From an uncultured Lachnospiraceae bacterium (lineage in GTDB: Bacteria; Bacillota; Clostridia; Lachnospirales; Lachnospiraceae), in assembly GCA_945913255.1 (NCBI GenBank), contig CAMEDC010000004.1:24520-88519 (forward strand): a stretch of DNA of 64,000 nt. Reading direction: 5' to 3'. The notes below the pieces were generated by a model, which worked only from the letters and a program-made list of their open reading frames with translations, ran no database searches and had not been told where the DNA came from. How positions within the stretch are numbered: the first letter of the stretch is position 1; every line of letters begins with the position of its first letter. Of the stretch, positions 2,965 to 31,929 are shown piece after piece. Position numbers and translations under genes: made by a program.

Positions 2965-3029
2965 GCCAATCGCCTCTGTTTCTTTCTTCTCAATATTGTT
3001 TCTGTCTTGTTTTTTTCATATTACTCACA

Positions 3030-3135: not shown

Positions 3136-3502
3136 GTCTAGATTTATTTAGATTCTTCTGCATCTTGTCTGGGATGCTTAATTACCATAACCATAATAGT
3201 CGAAACCGCCGCGTGCGTCAACCGAATTCAAGGATAGGAACTGGAGCAAAAATTGAGGATGGTAATATGACTGGAAATAGAATTCACTGCATAAATTGAA
3301 GGTTAGACGTAAATTGAAGTATTTGTGCATATTGAAGTTTAGAGAGGTGTCAGTTCGGGAAGCACCCCCAAGTTAGTAGAGAATCAAAAAATGTAGGTAA
3401 AAATTTCCGACGAAATTTCGCTGTTAATCACTGATCTTGTTGTTGAACTGGAAGACGGTTCCCTGGCTATCATTCTTAAGCTGACAAAGGCTCTGTCTGT
3501 TC

Positions 3503-3555
3503 AAAAAGCGGATTGTCTTTTGCAAAAAAACACTTTGCAGGACAATCCGCTTTTC
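3503..3555 (-). terminator. Rho-independent terminator after the LysM surface-protein gene
   Basis: Inverted repeat AAAAGCGGATTGTC ... GACAATCCGCTTTT. On the minus strand the stem is followed by TTTTTG. Confidence 0.7.
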
Positions 3556-3586
3556 TTATAAACATTCGATAAAATGTCAAATCAAA

Positions 3587-6544: not shown

Positions 6545-6594
6545 GTTGCTTCCTCCTCGCTTTATTTTGGTATTTCTATATTCATGCATTCCGG

Positions 6595-9713: not shown

Positions 9714-9746
9714 ACAAATGTCTCATTTCCACACACAAATGTATCA
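9714..9746 (-). promoter_or_regulatory. Two copies of the ACAAATGT(C/A)TCA motif upstream of the lipoprotein operon
   Basis: ACAAATGTCTCA at 9714-9725 and ACAAATGTATCA at 9735-9746, 70-100 nt upstream of the lipoprotein start. The same 12-mer recurs twice at 11242-11278. Confidence 0.4.
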
Positions 9747-16717: not shown

Positions 16718-16821
16718 GCCTAACCCTCCGAACTTCACCATTTTTCGATAGTCTTTCTTATGGTTCAGCATAACACAGTCTTTTACCGAATTCTTCTCAT
16801 TTCATGCGAATCTGCTGTCAA

Positions 16822-19800
16822 CTATTGCTTTTTGGAATTTTCCTTTCCCTTTCTTCTTAATGTATACCCGGTGCCAAGTAAAATCAGTATCACCGTCGGA
16901 ATCATCCACATATACCCATGACCGCCCTCCGGCTCTTTTACCAGATTCTGTGTGATGACATCCGTTCCTCCCTGGGCGTAGGAATCTACCAGAAGAACCG
17001 CACCCTTTTCCACAACGAGGGCATATTCCGAACTGCTGTCGACAAACATGCTGACAACGTTTTCCTCCATTGTGAACTCAACCTGTTCCGTACATACATT
17101 TCCCGCTTCATCGGTATACACACGCACAATCTGATATTCAATCGGCTCCCCATCCACAGAACGGTATTCTGCCGGAATCTCGAAGGATACCTTAATGGGT
17201 GAATCTATACCGACCTTTACCTCTTCACTGTCACCAATTTTCTTAAACAGGCTCATTTGCAGGAAAGAAATTGTTCTCTTATCTTCCGGTATCGCATCAA
17301 GTACAGCCTGTTGATACTTCACCGAAACCTTCTCATCCTCTATCCTTGCCACTTCAGCACGCAGGCTCACGGTTTCTCCGTCAAGTACAGCCTGCTTCTC
17401 CTTGTCTGTTAAGACAGCCTTCACAATCGATGCCATCTCTTCTTCGGCGATAACCGTATTCATAACACCTGTTTCAGAAAATCCCGATACACTTTGAGAT
17501 GGAAGCTTGTTTTCAGCAATAGTCTCTCCAAAGGAATCCGTTCCGGCCACCACAATATTACCTGTTTCAAGTGCCTGATGAATAAGCTCCTCTATACGGT
17601 TTTCACTGGAAGGCTCCTCTTCTCCGGTTGTTTCTTCTGCTTTCTTCTCATCCGCTTCTGTTCCGGCTGACGGTTTTTTCGTCACTGTCACAGTATCTGT
17701 ATTCACAGGTTTTACAACTGTCTCTTCCACTGCCGGAACATCATCTTCCTCCTCATCGTCGGTATTATTCGTGTTTGTGCTTTCCGGATCTTTTTTCACA
17801 TAGCTGCTTCCGGGCAGATTCTGAATGACAGCACTTGATGTATCTGCATCATGGCTCATCTCTATTCTCCCCTCATTTGTAATGTCACCGCTCAATTTAT
17901 GAATTCCGGAAATTGTACCTGCTTTACCGTTCTCAAGAGGTCCCGCTACATTACCGCCGCTGATTGCTCCATTATTGACCGTACTGCCGTCCGCATCAGA
18001 AGCACCGTTTAAGCTGCCGTTGTTATTGTCAATCGTTCCGTTGTTCGCCAAGAAACCGGGCGCCTTACTGGAAATATCACCTGCATTGATAATCTTTCCG
18101 CCTTTATTATTTTCCAGAGTTCCGCCATTGACAATATTACCTTGATTTTGCAGGATTCCGCCTTCCTCGTTTGTCAGGGTTCCACCTTCTTCAATGCGGA
18201 TATTTCCCTTGTTCTCCAGACTTCCGCCGTCACCAATTACCACTTTGCTTCCCTCAGGAACCTCCAGTGTTACTCCCTCAGGTACGCTTACAGGACTGTT
18301 AATCACCACCGGTGATGTCACAGGGGTCACCGTAACAGGCTTTTCACCCTCCGCATTCTTCTCCTGTGCCGCCTCCAGTGCCTCCTCCAGTGTAGAATAA
18401 TACTCTGTCTTAGGATTGCCGTTTTCGTCCTCATAGGTAATGGATGACTCTGCTCCGGGAAGCCCTGCTTCCGGAAGTTTACCGGTGTAACCGTTCAGAT
18501 TCGAAACTTCCGCACGGTCTACCTGACCTTCATTATTGGTGCTGCCGCCGGTCTGGTTCAAATCACCAATGGTACCGTTTTCGCCATTGTTCATTTCACC
18601 GCCGCTCTGCTCCACATCATGAATGTTTCCGCTGTTGTCAATAGTGGCATTGTCTTTATTCTCGAGCTTGCCCGTTACATCTCCATCGTTGTCAAAACTT
18701 CCGTTTTCACGGTTTACCACATTCGTTAAATCACCCGTGTTATTTAAATTGCCTGTGTTGTCCACATTGCCCTCGACTCTGCCCTCGTTGGACATATCTC
18801 CGGCATTTTCCACATCACCCTCAATATAGCTGTTCTCACCCTTGTTGGTCAGGCTGCCGCCTTCTTCATTCTTCAGGCTTCCGCCTTCCTCGTTCTTCAG
18901 ACTGCCGCTGTTGGTCAGGTTTCCGCCTGTCTTATTGGTCAGACTGCCACCCTCTTCATTTGTCAGACTTCCGCCTTCCTCAATCTTCAGATTGCCCCCA
19001 TTGCCAAGATTGCCGCTGTTTGTCAGCTTTCCACCGGACTGAATATCCAGTTCACCATCCTCCTCAATTTGGATGTTACCCTTATTGTCCAGGCTGCCGC
19101 CCTCGCCGATTGTTATCTGATTATCCGAGGGAATAGTCAATGTCACTCCCTCAGGTACACTTACAGGACTGTTAATCACCACCGGTGTTGTCACAGGGGT
19201 CACCGTAACAGGCTTTTCACCCTCCGCATTCTTCTCCTGTGCCGCCTCCAGTGCCTCCTCCAGTGTAGAATAATACTCTGTCTTAGGATTGCCGTTTTCG
19301 TCCTCATAGGTAATGGATGACTCTGCTCCGGGAAGCCCTGCTTCCGGAAGTTTACCGGTGTAACCGTTCAGGTCAGACACCTCCGCACGGTCTACACGTC
19401 CTTCATTATTAGTCTTTCCACCGGTCTGGTTCAAATCACCAATGGTTCCGTTTTCACCATTGTTCAACTTACCGCCGCTCTGATTCACTTCTTCGATGGT
19501 TCCGTTTTCACCGTTGTTCAGCTCACCACCACTCTGATTTACTTCTTCGATGCTTCCGCCTTCAACATTGTTCAGCTCACCGCCGCTCTGATTTACCTCT
19601 TCGATGCTTCCGCCTTCAACATTGTTCAGCTTACCGCCGCTCTGCTCCACATCATGAATGTTTCCGCTGTTGTCAGTAGTGGCATTGTCTTTATTCTCGA
19701 GCTTGCCCGTTACATCTCCATCATTGTCAAAACTTCCGTTTTCACGGTTTACCACATTCGTTAAATCACCTGTGTTATTTAAATTGCCGGTATTGTCCAC

Positions 19801-22800
19801 ATCTCCTTCGATTCTGCCCTCATTTGACATGTCTCCGGCATTTTCCACATCACCCTCAATATAGCTGTTCTCACCCTTATTGGTCAGGCTGCCGCCCTCT
19901 TCATTCTTCAGGCTTCCGCCTTCTTCATTGGTCAGACTGCCGCTGTTGGTCAGGTTTCCGCCTGTCTTGTTGGTCAGGCTGCCACCTTCTTCATTTGTCA
20001 GGCTTCCTTCATTGTCCAGATTGCCGCTGTTTGACAGCTTTCCACCGGACTGAATATCCAGTTCACCGCCCTCATCAATATGAATGTTACCCCGGTTATC
20101 CAGATCTCCGTTCTCACCGATTACAATCTTATTTCCTTCGGGAACCTCCAATGTCACGCCTTCCGGTATGGTTACAGGACTGTCAATCACAAAAGGCGAC
20201 TCAGTCAGTGTCACTGTCACAGGACTATTTCCATCAGAATTTTTCTCTCTTGCAGCTTCAAGCGCTTCCTCCAGCGAAGAGAAATATTCTGTCTTAGGAT
20301 TGCCGTTTTCATCCGAATAAGTTATGGATGCCTCCACTCCGTCAAGACCACTCTCAGGCTGCTTTCCGGAGTAATTATTCAAATCAGATATGGATGCATC
20401 GTCAATTCTGCCTTCATTGTTTGTCTTACCGCCGGTCTGCGTCAAATCACTGATTTTTCCGTCACTACCGTTATTTAAATCTCCACCGGTCTGCAGATAC
20501 TCGCTGATCTCTCCACCCTGATCATTGTCAAGTTCACCGCCGCTCTGCTTCACCTGGTTGATTTTCCCGCAGTTATCGGTCTTTGCGTTATCCTTATTCT
20601 CCAGCTGACCGTTGACATTTCCATCATTGTCGAAAGTGCCGTTCCCACGGTTCGTCACATTGTTATCAATGTTGCCGCTGTTATTCAGGTCGCCGGTATT
20701 ATCCACTTCACCGCTGATAATACCCTGATTTTCCATATCGCCCTGATTTTCTACATCGCCGCCGATATAACTGTTTTCTCCCTCATTTCGGAAGCTGCCG
20801 CTTTCATCATTGGTCACATCACCCAGGATATCTCCGGTATTTTCCATCTCCCCGGCATTCTCCACATCACCGTCAATTTCGCCGTTGTTCTTAAAGTCAC
20901 CGCCCTCTTTATTACTGACATTACCGGCAATATTTCCCTTGTTTTCCGTGGTTCCCTTGTTCTCAATGTCGCCTTCCACCGTTGTACCTTCATCAATCAT
21001 CAGGTTTGCGCCGGAATCTACCTTCATATCCGTCTGCAGAGCACCAATGCCGTCAGTTGAACTATCCGTTATCTCTGTTGTGCCGGGAGCCTTTACCTCC
21101 ACAGGCCCGCCGCTCACCTTGTTACCGCCCAGATCGAGGGTTATCTTCTTTCCGTTCTCATTTCCAATCTCCGTCACAGGCGTATCGGGATTTGCGGCAT
21201 CGGGAAGAGAGGTATCCTTCAATACCTCAATTGTGACATCCTCCGGTGATTGATTTGCATCCTTGATGGCGCTCGCAAGATCTCCGTAAAGCTTATCGCC
21301 GATTTTGGCCACAGCATCCCCTTCCATCGTGGTCGGATTCTTGCCTTCATAGCTTCCGCCGTCAAACTCTACGGAAGTGATGTTTCCGTCTTCGCTGTTC
21401 TTAACACTGCCTGATTCCTGCTTTAGGGAGCCAATGGTTCCACCGTTTGTGGTATCCCCATTGTTGATCAGTTCAGTAATCTCACCCTCATTGTTCAATT
21501 TTCCGCTGTTCTCCACCTTGGAAGCCTCGACGCCTTCCTCAATGGTCAAATCACCCTTGTTGTCAATGGGTACGGTTACAGAACCACTCTTTCCTTCCGA
21601 GGAATCTGTCAGTTTTGTATCTGTTGCATTCTCGGTAATCTCCATATCGGAAGGTTCCCCAATTTCATGACCGTTCAAATCAATAGTGATTCCGGGCTTG
21701 TCCACTACGATGGTTTCGCCGTTTTCACCCTTTATGTCATCCAGAAGCTTCAGTGTCGCATTGCCCTCAGTATCGTTCAAAGCCTCTTCCAGAGAAGGAT
21801 AATATGTCGTATTTGTGCTTCCGTCAGGATTCTGTGTAATAACCGCCACTTTTGCACCGGAATATTCCATATCATCAGCAGGCTGTCCCTTAAATTCACC
21901 ACCGCTGACATCTGCGGAATCGATTCCGCCGTTGGGGTTCTGATTATCCAGGGTACCGCCCGTCTGCTCCACATCACCAACGGTACCTGTTTCTCCGTTG
22001 GTAAAGGTACCGTTTTCCTGCTTTAATTGTCCACCAATGTCCCCGTTATTCTCCATGTCACCCGTATTGGTCACATTGCCGGGAGCAATCGTGCCGTTGT
22101 TGGTTGTCTTTCCGGCATTATCCAGATCGCCTGTCGCCGTCACGTCTTCTCCGAGAGTCAGATCACCATCCTTCTTCACATCAATATCACTGCCGATTTT
22201 ACCTTTTTCTCCGGTTTCCGGGCTGCCGGTATCCGTAAAGGTAACTTTGGAATCAGCAGGCGTACTTCCGCCTTCTCCTGTATCGGAACCGATCTGAATC
22301 TTTCCGCCGGTAATATCATTACCCTTTAAGTCAATATTGATCTCCTTGCCATTCGTATTGTCAATGACAAGAGCAGGTGTCTCAGGCAGTGTTACATCCT
22401 TCAAAAGTTCGATGTTCACATCTTCCTCTGATTGATTGGCATCCTCAATGGCGCTCTGTAAATCTCCGTAAAGCTTATCCCCTATTTTCGCCACAGCATT
22501 ATCAATCGGGGTAGACGGCTCGTCTCCCTCATAGCTTCCACGCTGTAAATCTACGTCGCCGATTCCGCCGGGTGCCGTTTCAGAATCATCCTGATTGACC
22601 GTTTTTCCACCGGTCTGAACAATCTGATTGGTAGTTGCACCCTCTTCATTGGTATAGGTTCCGTCCTTTTGTTCCACTGTTCCGGTTACTTCGCCCGCAT
22701 TGTCAAAATCACCGGTATTTTCCACATCCCCGGTCACAGTTCCGTCGTTGTCAATGTCACCGGCATTGTTCACATCTCCGGAAATGTTGCCTTTATTGTT

Positions 22801-25800
22801 CAGCTTACCCTTATCGCTGTTTGTCACATCACCACTGACGGAAATTCCCTCATCAATGGTAAGGTCGCCGTCATTGGTCACAGGGGCAGACACCGTTCCC
22901 TTCTCACCATCCGGTTTGCTGTCCGTAATGGTCAGACTGGTCCCTTCTCCGGTATGAATCGTAGAAGGTGTTGTCACATTATGTCCGTTCAAGTCAAGGA
23001 TAACAGGCGTTACAGGATTCTTAGCCGTAGTAAAATCAATCTCTTCCTCTGTAATATCCTTCAGCAGTTCAACAGTTACCGGACCATTCTCCATTCCTGC
23101 TGCATACTCCAGGGCATCATCCAGACTTACAAAGTAAACAGGTTCTCCGCCTCCGGGAGGTGTAATTTTAGCAACCTTTCCATCGGTTTCGTCCGCAGGA
23201 GTTGCACCATTTATCTTTTCGGGTGCTTTTCCCGTATATCCGCCTTTATCAATATCAGCATCCTCAATTGTACCGCCTTCCTGATTTTCCGTATTACCTC
23301 CGGTCTGAGTCAGCTTCTCAATCTTTCCGGCATTATTCGTATCGCCGCCCTCCTGATTCAGATTCTGAATATTACCATCCTCGCCATTGGACAGACTGCC
23401 GCCCTTCTGATCCACATCCTTCAGATTACCGTTGTTTTCCGTATCTCCCCGGTTGGTCAGTTTCTCAATGTTACCGTCCTTCTCGACTTTCAGTTTGCCG
23501 TCATTGTCCACATCTTTAGCGGTAATATCCTTTCCTACATCAAGAGAACCATCCTCTTCTACCTTCAACGGGGTCTTTACGATGCCCTTTCCCGTGTCAG
23601 CATCTTCACCGTTTTCAGGTTCATTTTTCAGAGTAACTCCCGAATCGGAACCGGCGGGAGTTTCCCCTCCGTCCTGACCAATCTGAATTCCCTTCTCAGG
23701 GTCTGATCCATCCCCCAACTCATGGTTATTCAGGTTGATAACAACAGGTACATCCGGATCAAGCACAACAGGTGTATCATCGCCCAGTCTGTCATCCGGA
23801 ATATCCTTCAGAATCGTAATTTCAAAGGGACTCGGCACATCAGGGTCTGAAGGATCCTGCTCATTGGCATCCTTCACCGCATCTTCAAATTTTCCATAAT
23901 AGGTCACAGGAGTGGTATTGCTCTTTGCCACTGCGCCGTCCGGAATCTGCGGAGCAGCCTCTTCTGCGGGAGTATAGCTTCCACCCTCCATCTCTACCTT
24001 CGTCTTTACTTCATTATTATTGTGGAAGTCGCCGTCCTTCTGAATCACATTGTTCATGGTTCCATCATTGGTCGTATCGCCTTCATTGGTAAAGACACCG
24101 GTAACGTTGCCGTCATTGTCAAAAGTACCTTTATTATTGACCGGTCCACTGACAACTGCATTGGGTTCTACCTGCACCTTTCCATCCTCTTCATTGGTAA
24201 GTTCACCGCTTACCTTGACGTATTCGCCAATGGTGAGTTCGCCGTTATTATCAATCGAGGCAGAAATTTCACTGATACAGGTAGCAGAACCCTTGCCGTT
24301 GACAAAGGAAACCTTACCGCTTGTTGTCACTGTACCGCTGGAAAGATTGCAGCCGTTCAAATCTACCGTTATGGCATATCCATTCTGATTGTTCAAGTCT
24401 ATGGTAGTATTACGGTTATCCACAGTGGAAAGAACCAAGATCGTCGCATCACCCTCAGACGCATTGGCAATATCCACTGCGTCTCTGAAATCTACATAGT
24501 ACTCGTTTCCGTTCATAATGGTATTATAGCCGGTCAGTCCTTCCGGCGCATTCTCCAGTACATGCTCCACAAAGTAGCCGTGCTCCAACTTTGCAGTTCC
24601 GATGGAACCATAGTTTTCAAATTTACTCTTCTCATAGGTCTCACTGTCCTGCTGTGTCATAGCAAGAACAGTCCCATGGTTATTTGTTATACCGAGATTT
24701 AACAATTCGCCCACAACAATCTCGTTCGTGAGTTCACCACGGTTCTCTATAGACAGCTTATTTGCTCCATTCGGTGTTCCCTGGGAATCCAGCAAGGTTA
24801 CCACTGCACCATCCTCAATCAACAGCGTGGAATCACCGTCCTCCGCAGAGCTGCCTACAGTGTGACCATTCAGGTCAATGCTGTATGCTGTAATTCCTTT
24901 GAGAGCATCTATCTCAATATCTTCAAAATCCTTCTGCAACTGAATCACAGAATTATTTCCATAGTTAGCCGCATATTCAATAGCAGCTGCTATCGATTCA
25001 AAATAACCGATTGTACCATCATCCAGTTTAATTGTGGCTGCTGCATCGGACACTTCCGTTTCCGTGGTGGATACCAGTTTTTCCGTGCCGACCGTAACGA
25101 TAATATCATCCGTCACAGCTGCAATGGTAAATACACCGTCCTCTCCCACAAGTAATTTACCGTTTGCCTTCACTGCCTTCAGTTTATACGCAGGTTTTAC
25201 CGCCACAGTAAATTGGTATTCTTTTCCGTCATAGATATTGTTGACTGCATAATACGAGCCATCCTCATCCTCGCCCGGAACAAAGTCAAAATTCTCATCC
25301 GGTGTGATGGTGTACTTTTCGTCATCTACTCGCAGTGTAACAGTATGCGCCGGAAGAAGCTCCCAGCCTGCATAGTAAGTCACGCGACCCACCTGAGCAG
25401 TATCTACCTCCGTGACAGCATCACCCAAAAGTTCTTCCTTGTCGAACCAGCCAAGGAAAGTATAGTTTTCCCTTGTAATCCGGGTACTGTCGGGCAGGGT
25501 AACATTGCTGCCACCGTGCTGATACTGTTCCGCAGGTGCAAAGTTCTCTGCATAGCTGCCGCCGTTTGTCTTCAGCGTAATTGTATATTTATTGGCAATC
25601 CATTTTGCATATACCACAACCTCATCAGCCGTATTGGAAGCTGAAATCTCCGTAACGGCTCTTCCGGTTCCGCGAGGTGCCGTATACCAGCCGCCGAAGG
25701 TATAACCCGTTTTCTCCGCTTCCGGCAGCGTAGTTGCAACTCCCTTGACACCCTTTTCGGGAGCAGTTGTCACAAAGGTTCCCGTAAACGCAGTACCTGT

Positions 25801-28800
25801 GGTAGAACCATTTACCTCTTTGTATGTGATGGTATAATTCAGATTTGCAGCCTGTTCCTCTGCTTCTGTCTCAATCTCTTCCGGTGTCTTCCCGGCTCCC
25901 TCCTCTGTAGTAGAACTTACATAACCCAATACAAAGGTGATGGAACCGCCGCCAACCTCACTGGGAATCAGCGTAAAGGTATACTGGTTATTTTCATCAA
26001 ACACAGCATTTGTTAAGGTACGTTTTAATATTCCATCGGAATAAATAGAAACAACATTGGCTTCCTTTCCTGTGCGATTGGTAATTGTCACCTCATAAGA
26101 GGTATCTGCACTGTACTCGGAATCTTCCCCGCCGGTTCCGGGATCATCGGGATCGGTTCCCTCGCCGGGCGTATCCGGGTCAGTGGGTTTTACGGAAACC
26201 TGAACATCGGCATCCGGTTCCGTACCCGGTGTATCTCCGCCGGATGTACCTCCGTCCGGGTCATTCACGTCGGGAAGGACATTAAAGTCAACCGGCTTCG
26301 CTTCCCAGTGGGCATACAATGTAGCAGCATCCAGGTACCGGGTTGCACTCATATTCTCGGAGAGACAGCCATCTGCACAAATCATCTGTATACCGCCATC
26401 TGCTTCCGTATAATATCCCAGGAAATTGTAGCCTTCCTTCTGCGGAATTGTAATTCCCGAAACGCCATTTACCGGGTTCGTGCAATCTTCCTCTGCATAA
26501 AATCCTGCAGAGTACTTTTCATAAATTACAGCTGTTCCTGACGTTGTTGCTTCCTGATTGTCCAAAGTGATTTCGTAAATGCCGTATGTATATACCGCAT
26601 TTACGGTTGTGTTTTCTGTAATGCCGTTAATCACCGCAGGATTCCACCCGGCGAAGGTATATCCCGTTCTGGCAGGATTCTGAACCGTTTCTCCTGCAAC
26701 CTGGCTTGCAGTTCCTGCCGTTACCGTGCTGCCATATGACACATGCTTATACTGCGTGCGCAGCGAAGTATCATCACAGCCGGGTGCACGATAAGTTACA
26801 ATAATATATCTGCCGTTTTCAACCTCTACGTTGATTGAATCACTCTCTGTATGGTTTTCATCTGCAGCATATTTGAATTCATAGGTTCCGGCAGTAAGTC
26901 CGGTAATTTCGCCTGCTTCCAGCTGTGCATCAGTCACCGTATTCCACGCAATCTGCCCGCTCTTTCGATATTTCAGAGTCGGACGGTTTGCCTGTGCAGT
27001 AAGGATAATGGAACCATCCGTTCCGCCATAATAAGTTGTCGCGGAACCTTCAATTCCGCTGGGAGGCGCATACTGTGCCGTAGTTACCTTTAATTCTGCC
27101 ACATTGGATACAGCCACGATTTCCTGCCCGGTAATATTTCTGGTGGAAGTCACCACACAATATACATGATAACCACCATACTGAAGTCCCTCCATGCTCT
27201 CTCCCTGTCTGATTTCGAAGGGATTCACATCCAAGCCGCTGATTCTCAGGGTTGCCTTGTTGGCACCGGAAATGGTAATGGGCGTTCCGGAAGGCGCAAA
27301 GGGTGTATCGCTCTCCGCCTTAATCTTGCCGTACAATGCATCATATACAGTATCGCCTCTGCCGAAGGTACCGTTCTGCAGTGCCACACCATCCTGGTTC
27401 TGATAGGTCCAGGAAAGTTCATTGTCCAGCTCAATCTCATAATAAGGTGCAATGTACCACTGATAGCTTGCTACATGGTTCTTGCTGGTTTCCGCGTGCG
27501 CCGTAAACACAGCTCTCTCACCATAGGAAATGGTATCCTGAGGAACCGTAATGGAAACGGAGGTCGCCGTCACAGGCGGCAGTTCATACCCTATCGCCGT
27601 GATGGTGATATCACCGTTAATATACCGTCTGTTGATTTCCAAAAAAGCCTTTTTCCTGTTGTCATAAACACTGTAGGAATAACCCGTATCCTTGGTGAGC
27701 TTTGTAACAGCACCACTCTCCGCATCCGTAACCGTCACCTCAATGTCATCCGGTAGCAGATACCGGTCATCCTCACCTTCCATAGACAAAGTACACGCAA
27801 ATCCGCTGGCATAACCTGCCGCTTCCTGCGCAGTATCACCCTGTTTAATCCTTTCCGTCGTAGCTCCCGGTGTATTGTTGATAATCACAATGTTTCCCAG
27901 TGCCTCCGGCACCAACAGATTACTACTGCCGTTTACCTTCTGCACGGAACAGTTATTGGTCACCGATTTATCCGGCTGAGGAATCCAGTTGGCATAGAGT
28001 GTAACACTCTCCGTAAATTCTTTTCCTGTACTTCCCGCACAGTTTTTATTCTCATCTTCTGCACCCACAGACCAATGCTTAAATTTATAACCGGAACGGG
28101 TAGGAGGCTGAATCGTTTCATTCCCGGTAGACTTCTTTATAGTAATGGTTCCGTCAGTATTCACCGTAATACTCTTCTGATCACTTGTCTTCTTCATCGA
28201 CGACGTACCGTCTGAAAAACACCCTGAACCTGCTTCCAGCGTAGCAATAATATTATTCATAGTGTTGACATCTGACAAACCCATTTTTGTGGTTCTGGTG
28301 ATATATTGGCCCACTGGGATATCCTCTGTAATTTCCCATGAAAAGGACAAACCTGAATCACCTTTAAATTTTTTATCATATGTGGTTGGTGCAAAAATAT
28401 GGGCATCTCTGTATGAATACCCACCATACCAAAACGAGAAAAGTTTATCAACACCAAATGCAAAGCCGTCTGTATATAGACGAAACTGTTGATCCGGCAC
28501 TGCATTCGGATAAGCCCTATCCGCATTTGTCTTACAATCTGATCTCGATGTCATATTTAAGTAGGACACTCCGCCGGCCGTATCTTTGGGCTCTACTGTT
28601 GCCCAGTCATCCCCGGCAATCATGACATCTGCACTGGCGCCAAAATACAGTTTATCCGTATACGCCGAAGTTCCCCGGTTTTCAAAAATATAGGTCACAT
28701 CTACAAGACTGTCTTCCAAAGTGCAGACCAATGCTACATAGATATTGGTACCGGACAGCTGTTTAAAGATATCATCGCCTTCAGTGGATACCATGCTGGC

Positions 28801-31800
28801 AAAGTTATTCGTAGTAGGTGAAAAACTGCCACTTCTTTCTGAGGGACTTAGTTCTCCCGTCTTAAACAGGTGACCAAAACCACTGTACCCAAATGTAACC
28901 ATACAACCGGGGTCACTATACGGATAACCTTGCATTTCCAGGTTTCCGTTTTTATATTGATAATACACGTTATCACTATGGCTGCTCGTCTTGTCCAGCA
29001 CCCACTTCGCGTAGTAAGTCTTTGTACCGCCTTCCGTATAAGTATGTACAGTAACAGGGGAACCCGTACAATTCATATTCGTATACCACCCCGCAAACCG
29101 AATGGCATCACTTCCCTTGTAGGTGGTTATTTCTGCTGGCAAGGCAACATTTTCATATACAGCCTGTGTATAAACTCCTGTTGCTGTTTTCTCCCACAAA
29201 GGATCTATAATATCTCCGCCCCTGGTCTTCAGGATTATCGTATTGGGCGGATTATCCTCCAGGGAATCTGCCTTCACCGTCACGGAAATAGGACCGGTAA
29301 TTTTCTCTCTGCTAATCCGGATGCTTCCCAACTTATTATCTGCATCATAGGTATAGCTGTAATTGAAATTTTCATTCTCCGGCTCGTTCAACAACTTGAT
29401 TATAACATTCGTCCCTCTGGTCGGTATCTCGTAGCCTTCCGCCGCCATTACTACCGCTCTGTAGTCTTCCTGTGCTTCATAAGTACCGTTCTCCAATACA
29501 TCTACCCGAATGGATGCCATCACATTCTCGGAAAGCTCTCCATCCACGCCAACGTCATAGATATTATTTTCATTGCTGTCAGCATAACTGTAGGTATTGG
29601 CTCCCTCCAGATCATAGTGGACCGAAACATAATTCAGTTCTGCCTCGTAGTTTTCTTTGGTAATCTCCGCTGCAGAGATGGTTTCATTTTCATCCTCGTA
29701 CACATAGTATACGGTATATACTTTCCCGGCATCTGCAGGATCTGCATCTTCGGAAAGGTCATACAGATTCTCCAGAGGAGTACGGTACACGGCAAGGTCA
29801 TCTGCCCGCTCCAGTGTGATATAGTTCACACCATCACAGGATGCAGCCAGTGCCTCGGCACCGGTAATCGCTTCTCCGATTTCCGCCTTTTCTCCATCCA
29901 CTCTCACGGTGACGGTTGCATACAAGCCGGATTCCGGTTCCTCGAGTTCGGATATGGTATAACTCTTATCAGAATGCCGAAGTGTTATACGCTTCAAGGT
30001 GCCATCGTTGCTTTGAATCAACACATCGGCGTTCGTTCCGTCGAAGGTAATACCGGAGGCAAGACCGGTAAAGGTAATCGTATGTCCTGCTCCGTCAAAA
30101 ACAAGACCGGCAGGAAGCTTTTTAACAGGAGACCATTCACTCTGCACCGTAATGTCATCCATGATTTTCACACTGAAATTCAAATCCGCTACGGTCATAT
30201 CGGCCGCCTGTCCCATTCCGGTAATGCCGTCCATGGGGTTCGCATCATCACTGTTGACCAGAATGGTAGAAATGGTATTTTCATCTAAAACACTTCCGTC
30301 AACATAGTAACCGTTCATCAAATCACGATAACGTAACAGCTGTTCTTCATTGTAAACGGTAAAGTAGGATACTGCCCTGGAAGTGCCCTGATAATAATGC
30401 AGAATGGTATCCTTTTTTTCACCGGAAGTAATTACAACGGTATAGATGGAAAAGTGCTCCGCCGTAATGGCCGCACTGTCTTCTGCGGCATCTGCTTCAT
30501 GGTTAATCTCTTCCGCCTCAGTGTGATCATCTGACACGTAAAAGACAGTCAGTTCCTTGTCCTCCTGTTGTTCCACCTCCGTCACGCCAACATTCTTGAA
30601 AGTCACGGAAACCTGTCCACAGGTGGTATCGGGCTCGATTTCATTTCCTTCCTCATCCACGATTGTAATATCAAAGGAGTAGGACTGTTCCACAACGGTT
30701 ACCACATCATCCGCAGTGGTTTCCTCTTTCTTTTCCGTGACAAGCTGTTCAATTTCGGAAACCTCTGCTTCATCGGTAATCATTTCCACATGCAGCAAAG
30801 CGCCGGCAGGGAACACTCCGGCGGGTGCAGAAACCGTTATTTCAATTCCGTTTCTCACAACAGTCTGTTCAAAAGCCACCTCCGCAGGCAACACCGTCGG
30901 GGTGGGCGAAGGAACAACTGTGGGGGACACTGTGGGCGTTGCCTCAGGGGATGCAGAGGGAGTTGCCTCAGGAGTTGCAGAGGTCGATACCCCGGGTGTT
31001 GTCCCGGGAGTTGCAGTCGGTGATACCTCGGGCGTTGTCCCGGGAGTTGCAGTTGGTGATACCTCGGGCGTTGTCCCGGGAGCTGCAGTCGGTAATACCT
31101 CGGGCGTTGTCCCGGGAGCTACAGAGGGAACTGCTTCCGCTGATGCTGTAGGAGTTGCTTCCGGCGTCACCTCAGGCACTTCCTCCCCGCTTCCATCACA
31201 TGCTGAACAGCTATGTGTACAGGGCTGTCCCTCTACCGCTTCCCGGTAGCCGCAAGTCTCATCATGTGTATGCTGGCAATTCAGTTCACGTGTCACACAG
31301 CCACTTTCCTCGGAACAGGAATGGGAACATACCAGATTCTGAACCTCGCTGTAGCACTCTTCCGTATGGACATGCCCTTCAGCGACAGCTTCAGTACCTT
31401 CTTCCGTTTCGACAGCCTCAGTGCTTCCCTCTTCCAAACCGCACACCAATACGGATTCTGTTTCATAGCAGCTGTCATCATGGACATGAACGCATACTGT
31501 GTTAGTAATATAGCACTCATCCCCATGGACATGCTGACAAGGCTGTGCCTCCACAGCCTCAACATATCCGCAGCTCGCATCATGGCAGGTATGGTTTTCA
31601 CAGACTGCTTCCGTCTGAGTCCCACTGCCGGACGCCAGTGCAGGAACATATACGCAGTTCACCACCAGGCAGACTACCATCAGCCCCGAAAGAATCCTTG
31701 CCGGTTTCTCATGTACCTGAAAGTGAATCAGCGTATAAAGAATTGCATTGTACACAAACAGGAAAACAAACAGAAAAGCAAGTATCGGATAGCGCAGCAC

Positions 31801-31929
31801 CCGATATTTTTTTCCAACCCCCGCCAATGCATGAATCGTTGTGCTCTTCGCATTTCTCAGAGGCTCTAATGCTTCATACACCTGATTGAATTTTTCTCTT
31901 TTGTTTCCCTTCATTTTCATAATTTCCAC
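16822..31929 (-). CDS. Giant (5,035-aa) modular cell-surface protein
   Basis: Uninterrupted 15,108-nt frame. GTG at 31929, or more likely ATG at 31920 after GAGAGAGTGGA. N-terminal hydrophobic segments end ...PALA-SG. Then a Cys/His-rich cluster, a Pro/Thr linker, at least 6 Listeria-Bacteroides-type repeats (GYTFAGW, GYNFLGYYT, GYTFGGWYT, YTFLGWF, IRFAGWYT, YKFKHWS), ten Asn/Gly-rich modules, and a C-terminal hydrophobic helix plus RRKGKENSKKQ tail. Confidence 0.9.
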   Translation of the reverse strand: MEIMKMKGNKREKFNQVYEALEPLRNAKSTTIHALAGVGKKYRVLRYPILAFLFVFLFVYNAILYTLIHFQVHEKPARILSGLMVVCLVVNCVYVPALASGSGTQTEAVCENHTCHDASCGYVEAVEAQPCQHVHGDECYITNTVCVHVHDDSCYETESVLVCGLEEGSTEAVETEEGTEAVAEGHVHTEECYSEVQNLVCSHSCSEESGCVTRELNCQHTHDETCGYREAVEGQPCTHSCSACDGSGEEVPEVTPEATPTASAEAVPSVAPGTTPEVLPTAAPGTTPEVSPTATPGTTPEVSPTATPGTTPGVSTSATPEATPSASPEATPTVSPTVVPSPTPTVLPAEVAFEQTVVRNGIEITVSAPAGVFPAGALLHVEMITDEAEVSEIEQLVTEKKEETTADDVVTVVEQSYSFDITIVDEEGNEIEPDTTCGQVSVTFKNVGVTEVEQQEDKELTVFYVSDDHTEAEEINHEADAAEDSAAITAEHFSIYTVVITSGEKKDTILHYYQGTSRAVSYFTVYNEEQLLRYRDLMNGYYVDGSVLDENTISTILVNSDDANPMDGITGMGQAADMTVADLNFSVKIMDDITVQSEWSPVKKLPAGLVFDGAGHTITFTGLASGITFDGTNADVLIQSNDGTLKRITLRHSDKSYTISELEEPESGLYATVTVRVDGEKAEIGEAITGAEALAASCDGVNYITLERADDLAVYRTPLENLYDLSEDADPADAGKVYTVYYVYEDENETISAAEITKENYEAELNYVSVHYDLEGANTYSYADSNENNIYDVGVDGELSENVMASIRVDVLENGTYEAQEDYRAVVMAAEGYEIPTRGTNVIIKLLNEPENENFNYSYTYDADNKLGSIRISREKITGPISVTVKADSLEDNPPNTIILKTRGGDIIDPLWEKTATGVYTQAVYENVALPAEITTYKGSDAIRFAGWYTNMNCTGSPVTVHTYTEGGTKTYYAKWVLDKTSSHSDNVYYQYKNGNLEMQGYPYSDPGCMVTFGYSGFGHLFKTGELSPSERSGSFSPTTNNFASMVSTEGDDIFKQLSGTNIYVALVCTLEDSLVDVTYIFENRGTSAYTDKLYFGASADVMIAGDDWATVEPKDTAGGVSYLNMTSRSDCKTNADRAYPNAVPDQQFRLYTDGFAFGVDKLFSFWYGGYSYRDAHIFAPTTYDKKFKGDSGLSFSWEITEDIPVGQYITRTTKMGLSDVNTMNNIIATLEAGSGCFSDGTSSMKKTSDQKSITVNTDGTITIKKSTGNETIQPPTRSGYKFKHWSVGAEDENKNCAGSTGKEFTESVTLYANWIPQPDKSVTNNCSVQKVNGSSNLLVPEALGNIVIINNTPGATTERIKQGDTAQEAAGYASGFACTLSMEGEDDRYLLPDDIEVTVTDAESGAVTKLTKDTGYSYSVYDNRKKAFLEINRRYINGDITITAIGYELPPVTATSVSITVPQDTISYGERAVFTAHAETSKNHVASYQWYIAPYYEIELDNELSWTYQNQDGVALQNGTFGRGDTVYDALYGKIKAESDTPFAPSGTPITISGANKATLRISGLDVNPFEIRQGESMEGLQYGGYHVYCVVTSTRNITGQEIVAVSNVAELKVTTAQYAPPSGIEGSATTYYGGTDGSIILTAQANRPTLKYRKSGQIAWNTVTDAQLEAGEITGLTAGTYEFKYAADENHTESDSINVEVENGRYIIVTYRAPGCDDTSLRTQYKHVSYGSTVTAGTASQVAGETVQNPARTGYTFAGWNPAVINGITENTTVNAVYTYGIYEITLDNQEATTSGTAVIYEKYSAGFYAEEDCTNPVNGVSGITIPQKEGYNFLGYYTEADGGIQMICADGCLSENMSATRYLDAATLYAHWEAKPVDFNVLPDVNDPDGGTSGGDTPGTEPDADVQVSVKPTDPDTPGEGTDPDDPGTGGEDSEYSADTSYEVTITNRTGKEANVVSIYSDGILKRTLTNAVFDENNQYTFTLIPSEVGGGSITFVLGYVSSTTEEGAGKTPEEIETEAEEQAANLNYTITYKEVNGSTTGTAFTGTFVTTAPEKGVKGVATTLPEAEKTGYTFGGWYTAPRGTGRAVTEISASNTADEVVVYAKWIANKYTITLKTNGGSYAENFAPAEQYQHGGSNVTLPDSTRITRENYTFLGWFDKEELLGDAVTEVDTAQVGRVTYYAGWELLPAHTVTLRVDDEKYTITPDENFDFVPGEDEDGSYYAVNNIYDGKEYQFTVAVKPAYKLKAVKANGKLLVGEDGVFTIAAVTDDIIVTVGTEKLVSTTETEVSDAAATIKLDDGTIGYFESIAAAIEYAANYGNNSVIQLQKDFEDIEIDALKGITAYSIDLNGHTVGSSAEDGDSTLLIEDGAVVTLLDSQGTPNGANKLSIENRGELTNEIVVGELLNLGITNNHGTVLAMTQQDSETYEKSKFENYGSIGTAKLEHGYFVEHVLENAPEGLTGYNTIMNGNEYYVDFRDAVDIANASEGDATILVLSTVDNRNTTIDLNNQNGYAITVDLNGCNLSSGTVTTSGKVSFVNGKGSATCISEISASIDNNGELTIGEYVKVSGELTNEEDGKVQVEPNAVVSGPVNNKGTFDNDGNVTGVFTNEGDTTNDGTMNNVIQKDGDFHNNNEVKTKVEMEGGSYTPAEEAAPQIPDGAVAKSNTTPVTYYGKFEDAVKDANEQDPSDPDVPSPFEITILKDIPDDRLGDDTPVVLDPDVPVVINLNNHELGDGSDPEKGIQIGQDGGETPAGSDSGVTLKNEPENGEDADTGKGIVKTPLKVEEDGSLDVGKDITAKDVDNDGKLKVEKDGNIEKLTNRGDTENNGNLKDVDQKGGSLSNGEDGNIQNLNQEGGDTNNAGKIEKLTQTGGNTENQEGGTIEDADIDKGGYTGKAPEKINGATPADETDGKVAKITPPGGGEPVYFVSLDDALEYAAGMENGPVTVELLKDITEEEIDFTTAKNPVTPVILDLNGHNVTTPSTIHTGEGTSLTITDSKPDGEKGTVSAPVTNDGDLTIDEGISVSGDVTNSDKGKLNNKGNISGDVNNAGDIDNDGTVTGDVENTGDFDNAGEVTGTVEQKDGTYTNEEGATTNQIVQTGGKTVNQDDSETAPGGIGDVDLQRGSYEGDEPSTPIDNAVAKIGDKLYGDLQSAIEDANQSEEDVNIELLKDVTLPETPALVIDNTNGKEINIDLKGNDITGGKIQIGSDTGEGGSTPADSKVTFTDTGSPETGEKGKIGSDIDVKKDGDLTLGEDVTATGDLDNAGKTTNNGTIAPGNVTNTGDMENNGDIGGQLKQENGTFTNGETGTVGDVEQTGGTLDNQNPNGGIDSADVSGGEFKGQPADDMEYSGAKVAVITQNPDGSTNTTYYPSLEEALNDTEGNATLKLLDDIKGENGETIVVDKPGITIDLNGHEIGEPSDMEITENATDTKLTDSSEGKSGSVTVPIDNKGDLTIEEGVEASKVENSGKLNNEGEITELINNGDTTNGGTIGSLKQESGSVKNSEDGNITSVEFDGGSYEGKNPTTMEGDAVAKIGDKLYGDLASAIKDANQSPEDVTIEVLKDTSLPDAANPDTPVTEIGNENGKKITLDLGGNKVSGGPVEVKAPGTTEITDSSTDGIGALQTDMKVDSGANLMIDEGTTVEGDIENKGTTENKGNIAGNVSNKEGGDFKNNGEIDGDVENAGEMENTGDILGDVTNDESGSFRNEGENSYIGGDVENQGDMENQGIISGEVDNTGDLNNSGNIDNNVTNRGNGTFDNDGNVNGQLENKDNAKTDNCGKINQVKQSGGELDNDQGGEISEYLQTGGDLNNGSDGKISDLTQTGGKTNNEGRIDDASISDLNNYSGKQPESGLDGVEASITYSDENGNPKTEYFSSLEEALEAAREKNSDGNSPVTVTLTESPFVIDSPVTIPEGVTLEVPEGNKIVIGENGDLDNRGNIHIDEGGELDIQSGGKLSNSGNLDNEGSLTNEEGGSLTNKTGGNLTNSGSLTNEEGGSLKNEEGGSLTNKGENSYIEGDVENAGDMSNEGRIEGDVDNTGNLNNTGDLTNVVNRENGSFDNDGDVTGKLENKDNATTDNSGNIHDVEQSGGKLNNVEGGSIEEVNQSGGELNNVEGGSIEEVNQSGGELNNGENGTIEEVNQSGGKLNNGENGTIGDLNQTGGKTNNEGRVDRAEVSDLNGYTGKLPEAGLPGAESSITYEDENGNPKTEYYSTLEEALEAAQEKNAEGEKPVTVTPVTTPVVINSPVSVPEGVTLTIPSDNQITIGEGGSLDNKGNIQIEEDGELDIQSGGKLTNSGNLGNGGNLKIEEGGSLTNEEGGSLTNKTGGNLTNSGSLKNEEGGSLKNEEGGSLTNKGENSYIEGDVENAGDMSNEGRVEGNVDNTGNLNNTGDLTNVVNRENGSFDNDGDVTGKLENKDNATIDNSGNIHDVEQSGGEMNNGENGTIGDLNQTGGSTNNEGQVDRAEVSNLNGYTGKLPEAGLPGAESSITYEDENGNPKTEYYSTLEEALEAAQEKNAEGEKPVTVTPVTSPVVINSPVSVPEGVTLEVPEGSKVVIGDGGSLENKGNIRIEEGGTLTNEEGGILQNQGNIVNGGTLENNKGGKIINAGDISSKAPGFLANNGTIDNNNGSLNGASDADGSTVNNGAISGGNVAGPLENGKAGTISGIHKLSGDITNEGRIEMSHDADTSSAVIQNLPGSSYVKKDPESTNTNNTDDEEEDDVPAVEETVVKPVNTDTVTVTKKPSAGTEADEKKAEETTGEEEPSSENRIEELIHQALETGNIVVAGTDSFGETIAENKLPSQSVSGFSETGVMNTVIAEEEMASIVKAVLTDKEKQAVLDGETVSLRAEVARIEDEKVSVKYQQAVLDAIPEDKRTISFLQMSLFKKIGDSEEVKVGIDSPIKVSFEIPAEYRSVDGEPIEYQIVRVYTDEAGNVCTEQVEFTMEENVVSMFVDSSSEYALVVEKGAVLLVDSYAQGGTDVITQNLVKEPEGGHGYMWMIPTVILILLGTGYTLRRKGKENSKKQ
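18190..20340 (-). repeat. Near-identical tandem coding modules (~0.87-1.04 kb) inside the giant gene
   Basis: Long identical strings recur at offsets of 873 nt (18338 vs 19211) and 1,011-1,035 nt (19284 vs 20295; 18623 vs 19658). The plus-strand shadow ORFs 18623-18829 and 19658-19864 translate almost identically. Confidence 0.9.

Follow-up and report, generated by a model that had tools for sequence, protein, structure and literature searches.

Fibrillar adhesins were described as a functional class composed of an anchor, a repeated-domain stalk, and a distal adhesive domain, with Flg_new counted among the stalk domains (Monzon et al., bioRxiv 10.1101/2021.12.07.471604), and an adhesion role was proposed for giant Clostridia proteins carrying Listeria-Bacteroides repeats (bioRxiv 10.1101/2023.11.21.568195). 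The SRRP of Limosilactobacillus reuteri, whose binding region (PDB 5NXK/5NY0) was a beta-solenoid on a Gram-positive gut surface protein, displayed one solenoid together with serine-rich repeats, an LPXTG anchor, and an aSec signal (KxYKxGKxW). Bactofilin had a similar short-coil beta-helix pattern and was small, cytoplasmic, and polymer-forming; internalins (InlB-like) were composed of an N-terminal LRR plus an inter-repeat Ig-like region. GH94 cellobiose phosphorylases and GH116 beta-glucosidases (PDB 2CQS, 3RRS, 5BVU) harbored an N-terminal beta-supersandwich, which was accessory to a catalytic (alpha/alpha)6 domain and was no proven lectin. Repetitive giant surface proteins with a presumed adhesin role represent an already known principle; the locus presented here encodes a protein built mostly of a solenoid module undescribed in the domain databases.

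The window (the whole 64,000-nt stretch of DNA analyzed) contained a giant ORF on the minus strand at 16822..31929, composed of 5,035 codons plus a stop with a mechanical start GTG at 31929, and its stop-free translation agreed with the single uninterrupted 15.1-kb frame of the initial annotation. The start codon was probably ATG at 31920 (aa 4) rather than this GTG, because the N-termini of homologues aligned to that position. Of the eight features that the initial annotation listed, seven were borne out in full. All features below lie on the same strand, and the neighboring genes and the homologues of this ORF indicated Clostridia, which are a Gram-positive group.

The encoded protein resembled the fibrillar adhesins in what its sequence predicts to be a secretion signal, a C-terminal anchor, a repetitive stalk including Flg_new, an unannotated distal N-terminal region, and an acidic Thr-rich composition, but it differed in three respects: (i) its anchor was a TM helix instead of LPXTG/sortase; (ii) half of its stalk consisted of tandem capped beta-solenoids instead of Ig-like domains; and (iii) a recognized distal adhesive domain was missing from the Pfam results, the sole candidate being a supersandwich identified by its fold. 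Compared to SRRP, it harbored ten narrower tandem solenoids, had neither Ser-rich regions (composition profile) nor LPXTG, and carried a leader matching no signal family; the SRRP structure was a non-significant match of the module (E = 0.49, TM 0.29). Compared to Bactofilin, the modules were located in a giant, presumably exported protein and had their own cap helix and D-L-N-G-H motif. Searching all four quarters of the protein gave no LRR family (E ≤ 0.01), and the RTX repeats, T1SS signal, beta-barrel translocator, and TPS families of RTX/T1SS and T5SS giant adhesins were not found with Pfam and NCBIfam. The likeness to GH94 and GH116 was at fold level, and the supersandwich of the giant protein was not followed by an (alpha/alpha)6 catalytic domain but sat between two Flg_new-type repeats of a structural protein.

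Co-linear orthologues, 3,877–5,293 aa in length and with 8–11 modules, were present in a handful of Lachnospiraceae MAGs; examples were MCQ2549514.1 (P0021; 5,293 aa), P0164 (4,634 aa), and ORFs in loci L001, L003, and L005. These Lachnospiraceae 'InlB B-repeat-containing' giants shared with the giant protein the order leader or signal peptide, optional Cys/His cluster, HFSIYTVV domain, conserved region, supersandwich, Flg_new, modules, and TM anchor, but they displayed variations in module number, leader type, Cys/His cluster, and Pro/Thr linker, and their identity to it was 43–82% over the N-terminal 2,290 aa, with values of 28–72% in the individual segments compared. The giant protein itself was missing from the searched collection of 15 billion proteins. 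In the animal gut, Lachnospiraceae count among the main organisms that degrade fiber and produce butyrate, and their means of attachment to plant particles, mucus, or other cells are poorly understood.

The protein began with a bipartite leader of ~96 aa (aa 4–99; 31633..31920), delimited from the sequence and an alignment with homologues. It started with a basic N-region and the motif G-K-K-Y-R-x-L-R-Y-P, after which a short basic loop separated hydrophobic segment 1 (aa 44–70) from hydrophobic segment 2 (aa 77–99). The two hydrophobic segments noticed initially, the second ending in PALA-SG, were thereby located, and PALA|SG was a probable signal-peptidase site (A-x-A). The bipartite leader was kept in 10 other proteins, while L003, L005, and P0018 had a short classical signal peptide in its place. 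The following Cys/His cluster (aa 106–245; 31195..31614), likewise anticipated near the N-terminus, contained 17 Cys and 12 His, with the HxHxxxC motif HxH[DGT][DE]xC occurring four times, and would probably bind metal; its identity was 73% in P0164 and 58% in P0004, and it was missing from P0002 and P0003. A word-indexed search with this cluster returned 5 short fragments only and missed P0164 and P0004, so the count is uninformative on rarity. For the leader, the Cys/His cluster, and the C-terminal domain, Pfam and NCBIfam gave no match with the limit relaxed to E ≤ 10. The next segment was a Pro/Thr-rich linker (aa 246–345; 30895..31194), which proved to be a repeat linker as annotated, with a 12-aa (36-nt) tandem repeat present in 4.1 copies at 30971–31118; PDB matches of this linker to circumsporozoite were a low-complexity artefact.

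A beta-rich domain ending in HFSIYTVV (aa 346–505; 30415..30894), having no Pfam match, showed 28–37% identity to N-terminal parts of P0006 and P0009, both unrelated to the giant protein elsewhere, and sequence comparison identifies it as a promiscuous domain at the N-terminus of surface proteins of Firmicutes. The initial annotation was right about this domain; its twofold recurrence in the LysM protein at 3587–6610 was unsupported by BLASTP (E = 9.8), the two proteins having only a short terminal motif in common (KFSDYAV, HFSNFAFA). BLASTP also gave no support for homology of the HFSIYTVV domain to the domain at the C-terminus of the giant protein. The conserved region at aa 506–900 (29230..30414) had no assigned family, with no Pfam match, and displayed 44–70% identity in orthologues over most of its length; reading aa 506–700 as a degenerate module head ('FDGAGHTITF') was ruled out by a head-profile score of ~0 bits. 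A weak Flg_new-like repeat (aa 901–977; 28999..29229) scored 22.5 bits, under the cut-off.

The segment at aa 978–1250 (28180..28998) was a variable beta-supersandwich domain according to an AF2 model of moderate quality (pLDDT 77, pTM 0.77) and Foldseek, in which its matches (E = 3e-5 to 1e-3, prob 1.0) were domains at the N-terminus of GH94 and GH116 enzymes and of a polysaccharide lyase, with TM 0.34–0.48, high rmsd, and sequence identity of 6–12%. It was the most diverged segment relative to the closest orthologue: its identity was 29–31% in P0164, P0021, and P0023, while its flanks were 64–82% identical in P0164, and the residues kept invariant were E-N-R, Asp, Trp, and Tyr. Since the conserved and co-linear N-terminal 2,290 aa thus held one hypervariable domain with invariant polar/aromatic residues, ligand recognition is suggested. 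The modeled fold makes this domain a candidate glycan- or ligand-binding head and may be taken as moderate independent evidence for glycan binding.

In the first part of the stalk (aa 1251–2292; 25054..28179), five Flg_new (InlB B-repeat) units were scattered among all-beta domains, which were conserved, and an acidic Pro/Gly/Asp linker. In Pfam, Flg_new PF09479 reached 106.8 bits (cut-off 27), with four strong stretches and one weak, and in NCBIfam TIGR02543 reached 73.1 bits (cut-off 20.95); these Listeria-Bacteroides repeats were the only above-cut-off family matches in the whole protein. A signature scan placed the units at aa 1280, 1756, 1833, 2075, and 2155, plus a weak one near aa 945, making about six, consistent with the at least six proposed earlier. 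The identity of aa 1300–1700 was 52–67% in orthologues.

The second part of the stalk (aa 2293–4719; 17773..25053), delimited by head profile, self-alignment, and AF2, consisted of ten tandem capped beta-solenoid modules of 169–337 aa each. From N to C they occupied 24547–25053, 23950–24546, 23185–23949, 22519–23184, 21853–22518, 21337–21852, 20338–21336, 19327–20337, 18454–19326, and 17773–18453, with heads at aa 2308, 2477, 2676, 2931, 3153, 3375, 3547, 3880, 4217, and 4508; the ten conserved heads reported initially were all located. A cap helix (Y-x-x-L-x-x-A-l-x-x-A) and a (D/N)-L-N-G-H strand were combined in each module with an N-x-G solenoid of short coils. Module 4, as modeled by AlphaFold2 (pLDDT 91.3, pTM 0.88), displayed a single helix as its cap and then strand pairs at a regular spacing of 16–18 residues, with coils of ~16 residues and two strands, and the solenoid array had hydrophobic periodicities of 6, 10, 12, 16, and 18 residues, which the control region did not have; model and periodicity together support the predicted beta-solenoid nature of the N-x-G runs. 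The only columns invariant over the ten modules were Ala, Asn, and Gly, arguing for structural residues (Asn-ladder/turn type) rather than catalytic ones. Modules 8–10 showed protein identity of 56–83% and DNA identity up to 94–96% over 139–300 nt, and on these sequence grounds they are recent duplicates.

No significant structural neighbor of module 4 was found by Foldseek in PDB (all E ≥ 0.07, TM ≤ 0.36), and nothing significant was found in the viral structure library. In PDB sequence searches, single sequences gave nothing beyond the circumsporozoite artefact, and searching with profiles (module, supersandwich domain, aa 1300–1700) likewise gave nothing. The sole Pfam signal of the modules was Bactofilin PF04519 (22–26.1 bits, E = 1e-5 to 2e-4), under the gathering threshold of 27.9. 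The pectate-lyase-like beta-helix (Pfam Beta_helix and related) did not match module 4 at E ≤ 10, with best Foldseek E of 0.07–3. As the initial annotation expected, these profile-HMM searches (Pfam, NCBIfam) assigned the modules above threshold to no characterized adhesin family.

The modules were followed by an acidic linker (aa 4720–4785; 17575..17772), recognized from the sequence, and by a C-terminal membrane-proximal domain (aa 4786–4990; 16960..17574) ending in SSEYALVV, delimited from the sequence and orthologue comparison, with 30% identity to the C-terminus of P0017; orthologues closed the same domain with (R/K)FSTYAI. The protein then ended in the C-terminal TM helix and basic tail noted earlier, identified here as a hydrophobic helix (~aa 5006–5023) plus RRKGKENSKKQ (16825..16923) that recurred in complete orthologues. 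The C-terminus read ...VKEPEGGHGYMWMIPTVILILLGTGYTLRRKGKENSKKQ and had no LPXTG, sorting-signal models (NCBIfam, E ≤ 10) did not match it, and LPXTG was found in the last 60 aa of 0 of the best 150 among 1,459 family representatives. A leader plus a C-terminal TM helix with basic tail, in place of LPXTG, argues for a C-terminally anchored surface fiber. Judged from sequence, a secretion signal and a cell-surface anchor are present, and the initial picture of a modular, exported, and membrane-anchored surface protein gains support from the A-x-A end of the leader and the recurrence of the C-terminal helix in orthologues.

From this architecture, we infer, with a probability of about 0.6, a Sec-exported, strongly acidic, C-terminally tethered giant surface fiber with a solenoid/Flg_new stalk and a ligand-binding N-terminal third. 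Export would proceed through Sec, with hydrophobic segment 2 acting as the signal and being cut after PALA; the C-terminal helix would tether the protein to the cytoplasmic membrane and leave the basic tail in the cytoplasm. Outward from the membrane, a small domain would be followed by the ten capped beta-solenoid modules and then by the Flg_new and other all-beta domains, and this stalk, roughly estimated at ~100 nm, would hold the N-terminal third (supersandwich, HFSIYTVV domain, and Cys/His cluster) off the cell. Ligand binding would most likely fall to the variable supersandwich, with a glycan as the most likely ligand; 'adhesin-like' is used here for a function predicted from architecture. 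One point counts against the export model: if both hydrophobic segments of the leader spanned the membrane, the protein body would be cytoplasmic.

A rather unlikely alternative is that of a non-adhesive coat or spacer, in which an acidic solenoid brush would exclude phages, host factors, or cells, or organize the envelope, with no specific ligand involved. The composition fits such a brush, as D+E amounted to 858 and K+R to 329 (net charge ~−529) and the solenoid array was rich in Asn, Gly, Asp, and Glu; moreover, no known adhesive domain was detected with Pfam and NCBIfam, and half of the protein was a repetitive stalk whose module number varied among orthologues. The tethered-fiber reading also draws on this variation, as surface-protein stalks typically differ in length as these module counts do. 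A coat or spacer would, however, account poorly for an N-terminal part that was non-repetitive, conserved, and co-linear apart from one hypervariable domain with its invariant residues, and for the similarity of that domain to accessory domains of carbohydrate enzymes.

The neighbors of the giant ORF in the window were GH115, GH3, and a GDSL esterase, the remaining window being mostly housekeeping genes, and these glycan-degrading neighbors had been taken as pointing to a glycan adhesin. That argument failed: next to the orthologues lay genes for a two-component system, an MFS transporter, a chemoreceptor, or FabH/ACP, and because GH115 and GH3 were not conserved beside them, the neighbors say little about glycan binding. 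The same hydrolases could speak for a surface-displayed polysaccharide-degrading enzyme with modules serving as pectate-lyase- or glycosidase-like catalytic domains on plant fiber, as could the pectate lyases, polygalacturonases, and PL6 lyases among the weak Foldseek matches of the module and the pairing of a supersandwich with catalytic domains in GH94 and GH116. This reading is improbable: besides the variable neighborhood and the non-significant level of all module matches, Pfam/NCBIfam enzyme families gave no match at E ≤ 10, the invariant Ala, Asn, and Gly left no catalytic candidate among the module columns, and the supersandwich had no (alpha/alpha)6 catalytic domain after it. Catalytic right-handed beta-helices also have wider coils than the ~16-residue, two-strand coils of the modules.

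It is very improbable that the ORF is a nonfunctional long frame, whether through misassembly or through pseudogene decay. The DNA stretches of modules 8–10 that were 90–96% identical over 139–300 nt may mislead short-read assemblers on module count, but the repeats were diverged, none being identical, and intact co-linear orthologues of 3,877, 4,027, 4,296, 4,634, and 5,293 aa lay on independent contigs (intact ORFs of 3,877–4,296 aa among them), making an artefact unlikely. The 5,035 sense codons contained no internal stop, and the frame is not a chance product because (61/64)^5035 is ~e^−241; its GC content was the same as that of the flanks. The ORF is a real 15-kb gene, and ten modules is the count in the present assembly. 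A contact-dependent effector or toxin-delivery filament of FHA/CdiA-like type, suggested by giant size, beta-helical structure, and weak Foldseek matches of the module to the HxuA two-partner-secretion domain and autotransporter passengers, is a highly unlikely reading, given that these matches were non-significant (E ≥ 0.1), that TPS domain, toxin domain, and immunity gene were all missing, that the C-terminus was a membrane anchor instead of a variable toxin tip, and that T5SS is inapplicable in a Gram-positive organism.

The giant gene represents, at full length and without interruption, a family that is usually fragmented in metagenome assemblies, and defining its module, unusual leader, and Cys/His tip would improve the annotation of the large unannotated surface proteome of gut Clostridia, with the variable supersandwich domain as an expressible target for ligand screening. 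A bolder and rather doubtful extension of the tethered-fiber reading would make the modules a new superfamily building a separate class of TM-anchored giant fibers in Clostridia, the leader a new export/targeting signal, the HxHxxxC tip a metal-binding one, the supersandwich a swappable lectin-like domain, and the Asp/Asn-rich coils ones that may fold or become stiffer with bound Ca2+, as a functional analogue of RTX in Gram-positive bacteria.

Homologues were named 'InlB B-repeat-containing protein' and 'hypothetical protein' only, and in this respect the initial statement that the protein had no characterized counterpart held. It was not, however, a one-off protein of a new type: besides belonging to a co-linear orthologue group, it shared its module with 1,459 representative proteins (clusters) matched by the module-head profile A1 at E ≤ 1e-3 (346 at E ≤ 1e-10). 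This number came from an exhaustive HMM search, while a word-indexed search with the same profile found one protein. The main module was thus present in >1,000 large proteins yet unseen by the Pfam/NCBIfam libraries used; many of the 1,459 clusters were 2,000–7,000 aa in length, and the few named ones were all Clostridia. Among the best 150 of the 1,459, the number of heads per protein had a median of 5 and a maximum of 14.

The giant protein encoded at 16822-31929 on the minus strand joined a sizeable, uncharacterised family as a new member, and the main module of that family was missing from Pfam and NCBIfam and had no significant PDB match. Its gene was returned by the ORF listing as a single frame of 5,035 codons with zero internal stops upon translation, as the initial annotation had read it, and displayed GC content (0.45-0.50) and strand skews in line with the remainder of the window; an assembly artefact was considered as a rival explanation. 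The frame opened mechanically at a GTG, from which residues are numbered here; the true start was more likely the ATG at 31920 (aa 4, MKMKGNK...), because this position aligned with the N-termini of homologues.

Searching exhaustively by HMM with the head profile (built on the start of the module) recovered 1,459 representative proteins (E<=1e-3), of which 346 passed E<=1e-10 and 33 passed E<=1e-30. The best 150 of these 1,459 matches had a median length of 2,575 aa (56 of at least 3,000 aa and 16 of at least 5,000 aa) and a median of 5 heads per protein (maximum 14), and none of these 150 carried LPXTG in its last 60 residues. About ten head-profile matches were co-linear orthologues: the closest, P0164 (4,634 aa), shared 64-82% identity across most of the N-terminal 2,290 aa, and P0017, P0018, P0019, P0021 (MCQ2549514.1), P0023, and P0028 shared 43-67% in most regions compared. 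Complete orthologues contained 8-11 modules followed by a C-terminal hydrophobic helix and then a basic tail, and the hydrophobic helix, basic tail, and ten modules described initially for the giant protein were all recovered. For the non-repetitive aa 345-1350, a 5.8-billion-cluster collection that did not include the window protein itself contained just four close relatives (57-64% identity), all of them fragments and one labelled 'hypothetical protein [Clostridiales bacterium]'. When 185,579 species-representative genomes were scanned with a profile of aa 1300-1700, five loci (56-72% identity) emerged, the window's own genome not being among the loci found; all five lay in Lachnospiraceae or 'uncultured Clostridium' MAGs, one from horse faeces. 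The few recorded names were 'InlB B-repeat-containing protein [Lachnospiraceae bacterium]' and 'hypothetical protein' of Clostridia, Ruminococcaceae, or Oscillospiraceae bacteria, and in two remoter members of the module family Pfam recognised the YDG domain alone. The proposal that the protein had no characterised counterpart held, homologues being called only 'InlB B-repeat-containing' or 'hypothetical'; the protein was not unique, given the 1,459 module-bearing representatives and about ten co-linear orthologues. At one orthologue-bearing locus in a Lachnospiraceae MAG (L005), a second giant ORF (152-6607, plus strand), which encodes at least 2,151 aa and includes a Flg_new repeat, lay immediately upstream of the orthologue in the same orientation, and therefore giant surface genes can occur in tandem.

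The sole family recognised in the giant protein by Pfam and NCBIfam was the Listeria-Bacteroides / InlB B-repeat (Flg_new), of which about six units were counted as initially described. A separate Pfam/NCBIfam scan gave no family match at E<=10 for the leader (signal-peptide families included), the Cys/His cluster, the HFSIYTVV domain, aa 506-1273, one complete module, or the C-terminal 262 aa, and sequence and profile searches of PDB found no relative. A sub-threshold Pfam bactofilin signal within the modules reflected their beta-helix-like repeat pattern. Of the eight features in the initial annotation, seven were confirmed outright, among them the Pro/Thr linker (aa 246-345, 30895-31194, minus strand), which contained a 36-nt tandem repeat. 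Plasmodium circumsporozoite matches to this linker in PDB (E=1e-17) were rejected as a low-complexity artefact, one that could mislead automated annotation.

The module array (aa 2293-4719, minus strand) comprised ten units of 169-337 aa, each composed of (i) a head with a short strand and then a helix of pattern Y-x-x-L-x-x-A-l-x-x-A, (ii) a strand with (D/N)-L-(N/K/G)-G-(H/N/C), a motif missing from modules 8-10, (iii) a variable number of short N-x-G / D-x-G repeats, and (iv) a conserved tail, G-x-i-x-x-a-x-l-x-G-G-x-Y-x-G-K. Hydrophobic autocorrelation in the array peaked at 6, 10, 12, 16, and 18 residues, with a flat control region. AlphaFold2, fed with an alignment of the ten paralogous modules, modelled module 4 (aa 2916-3137) at pLDDT 91.3 and pTM 0.88; a single capping helix was followed by two or three wider coils (about 22-25 residues) and these by regular strand pairs at 16-18-residue spacing. 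This model and the periodicity supported the expected beta-solenoid character of the N-x-G runs. Foldseek of the model against PDB gave no match below E=0.07 and TM of at most 0.36, the weak matches being nearly all beta-helix (SufD, HxuA TPS domain, Ag43, L. reuteri SRRP, pectate lyases, and putative Bacteroides adhesins), and a viral library yielded nothing significant. Because of the model, the insignificant Foldseek matches, and the lack of a family match, the module is predicted to be a beta-solenoid by general class, remote from solved structures and outside the curated families tested. The modules were also considered as catalytic beta-helix units; Ala, Asn, and Gly were the only residues at invariant columns of the ten-module alignment, which is consistent with a structural role in an Asn ladder and tight turns and not with a catalytic constellation. 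Modules 8-10 (17773-20337, minus strand) shared 56-83% protein identity and 90-96% DNA identity over 139-300 nt and are recent duplicates. Module 8 contained an internal tandem repeat of 54 nt (18 aa) in 3.8 copies (19442-19644), and modules 8-10 were the part of the assembly most worth a long-read check of module count.

The bipartite leader (31633-31920, minus strand; aa 4-99, about 100 aa) had the order basic region, G-K-K-Y-R-x-L-R-Y-P, hydrophobic segment 1 (aa 44-70), basic loop, and signal-like segment 2 (aa 77-99) ending A-x-A, and both hydrophobic segments described initially were located, the latter ending PALA|SG. The same leader of ~100 aa was present in several orthologues; L003 and L005 (both orthologue-bearing loci in Lachnospiraceae MAGs) and P0018 had an ordinary short Sec signal peptide in its place. 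This supports identifying the true signal peptide with segment 2, which comprises the n-region EKPAR, an h-region, and PALA|SG. Were both segments to cross the membrane, the protein body would be cytoplasmic, at odds with the C-terminal anchor, making the leader's apparent topology puzzling. The leader was also N-terminal in the otherwise different giant proteins P0141, P0042, and P0011, and thus behaved as a portable element. The Cys/His cluster (31195-31614, minus strand; aa 106-245), likewise recovered, contained 17 Cys, 12 His, and four HxH[DGT][DE]xC motifs. It was kept in P0164, P0014, and P0004, and HxHxxxC-type runs with 2-5 motif copies occurred near the N-termini of P0019, P0032, P0063, P0098, and P0145; the HxH[DGT][DE]xC motif was also found in short metagenomic fragments (P0179-P0183), and P0002 and P0003 had an acidic Gly/Ser/Glu linker instead of the cluster. 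Putative metal binding is a reasonable guess, no more.

Identity to P0164 was 73% in the Cys/His cluster, 82% in the HFSIYTVV domain, 70% at aa 505-900, 33% at aa 900-1300, 65% at aa 1300-1700, and 64% at aa 1700-2290. For the variable domain (aa 978-1250), orthologues fell into two classes, with 36-52% versus 29-31% identity to the window copy. AlphaFold2, with ten orthologous sequences as input, gave an all-beta model (pLDDT 77, pTM 0.77), for which Foldseek returned 35 PDB matches at E<=1e-3 (probability about 1.0, TMq 0.34-0.48), for the most part to multi-domain enzymes, namely GH94 cellobiose phosphorylases, GH116 beta-glucosidases, and one polysaccharide lyase; weaker matches included the YidC periplasmic domain. 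Proteins of these types have in common an N-terminal beta-supersandwich of galactose-mutarotase-like or carbohydrate-binding type, and this part is presumably what Foldseek matched. In the giant protein, the supersandwich domain was not followed by a catalytic domain. Despite the divergence, E1083-N-R1085, D1101, D1108, D1161, W1167, Y1171, D1191, and W1198 were invariant in the orthologue alignment, an acidic, basic, and aromatic mix that would be typical of sugar-binding sites. With moderate confidence, the modelled supersandwich domain is a candidate binding head and the best clue to the ligand.

In the proposed mechanism, the protein would be exported by Sec and cleaved after A99, as suggested by its sequence and by orthologues with a classical signal peptide; the C-terminal helix would act as a tether with the basic tail inside, in keeping with the positive-inside rule and with its recurrence in orthologues. 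The ten solenoid modules, Flg_new repeats, and other beta domains would form a stalk, the solenoid fold being predicted with high confidence for one module and rod-like behaviour being probable. As a rough estimate, a rise of about 0.48 nm per 16-residue coil would make the 2,430-aa array some 70 nm long, with a similar length contributed by the twenty or so small domains. The N-terminal third would be held distally, where the variable supersandwich domain may bind a ligand, probably a glycan. A long acidic surface brush of non-adhesive nature and a CdiA/FHA-like delivery filament were also considered. The protein was not an internalin, SRRP, pectate-lyase-like beta-helix, bactofilin, or RTX/T5SS adhesin, because the defining features of each were tested for and not found. 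By function, the protein fits the fibrillar-adhesin class. Flg_new is a known stalk domain of fibrillar adhesins (bioRxiv 10.1101/2021.12.07.471604), a probable adhesion role has been proposed for giant Clostridia proteins with Listeria-Bacteroides repeats (bioRxiv 10.1101/2023.11.21.568195), and giant surface genes have been reported for the Lachnospiraceae member Ca. Epulopiscium viviparus. The giant protein differed in having a TM helix as anchor instead of sortase attachment, in consisting for about half of its length of tandem, individually capped, narrow beta-solenoids in place of Ig-like domains, in lacking a recognised adhesive domain, and in its bipartite leader and HxHxxxC cluster. 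A giant, repetitive, probably adhesive surface protein is unsurprising in itself in a gut Firmicute; this one is of use for annotation and as a tractable target in ligand discovery.

The giant gene was flanked on one side by a GH115 gene (32072-35044, minus strand), with a GDSL esterase upstream, and downstream by a GH3 gene (14582-16771, minus strand); all four shared one strand, and a terminator scan of the gap separating the giant gene from GH3 detected no terminator-like site. Elsewhere the window was mostly housekeeping (ValRS, glutamate synthase, helicase, Mur ligase, and amylase). These glycan-degrading neighbours had been offered as a functional clue, which did not stand: orthologues were flanked by unrelated genes (histidine kinase and response regulator, MFS transporter, chemoreceptor, GNAT acetyltransferase, EamA, or ACP/FabH), so the association with glycan-degrading genes was peculiar to the window genome and cannot support a functional inference. 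About 10 kb downstream, a putative surface protein of 1,007 aa (3587-6610, minus strand) harbored a divergent InlB B-repeat and, at its C-terminus, two LysM domains, and its ORF overlapped by 16 nt that of a 333-aa putative surface Flg_new protein (6595-7596, minus strand). Two domains of the LysM protein ended in KFSDYAV and HFSNFAFA, sharing the terminal motif (H/K)FSx(Y/F) with the HFSIYTVV domain; BLAST found no similarity beyond this short motif, and thus the HFSIYTVV domain itself was upheld and its proposed recurrence in the LysM protein was not. An RsgI-like anti-sigma factor with central domain PF23750 (8564-9643, minus strand) adjoined a 478-aa protein with a C-terminal LuxR/GerE helix-turn-helix (9744-11180, minus strand); RsgI proteins of cellulolytic clostridia are sensors of extracellular polysaccharides. 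A 660-aa ORF (50317-52299, minus strand) had zero Pfam families at E<=1e-5, and a 404-aa protein (53677-54891, minus strand) with HAAS and DUF4097 'toastrack' domains and a weak DUF2807 match was likewise beta-rich and possibly envelope-associated.
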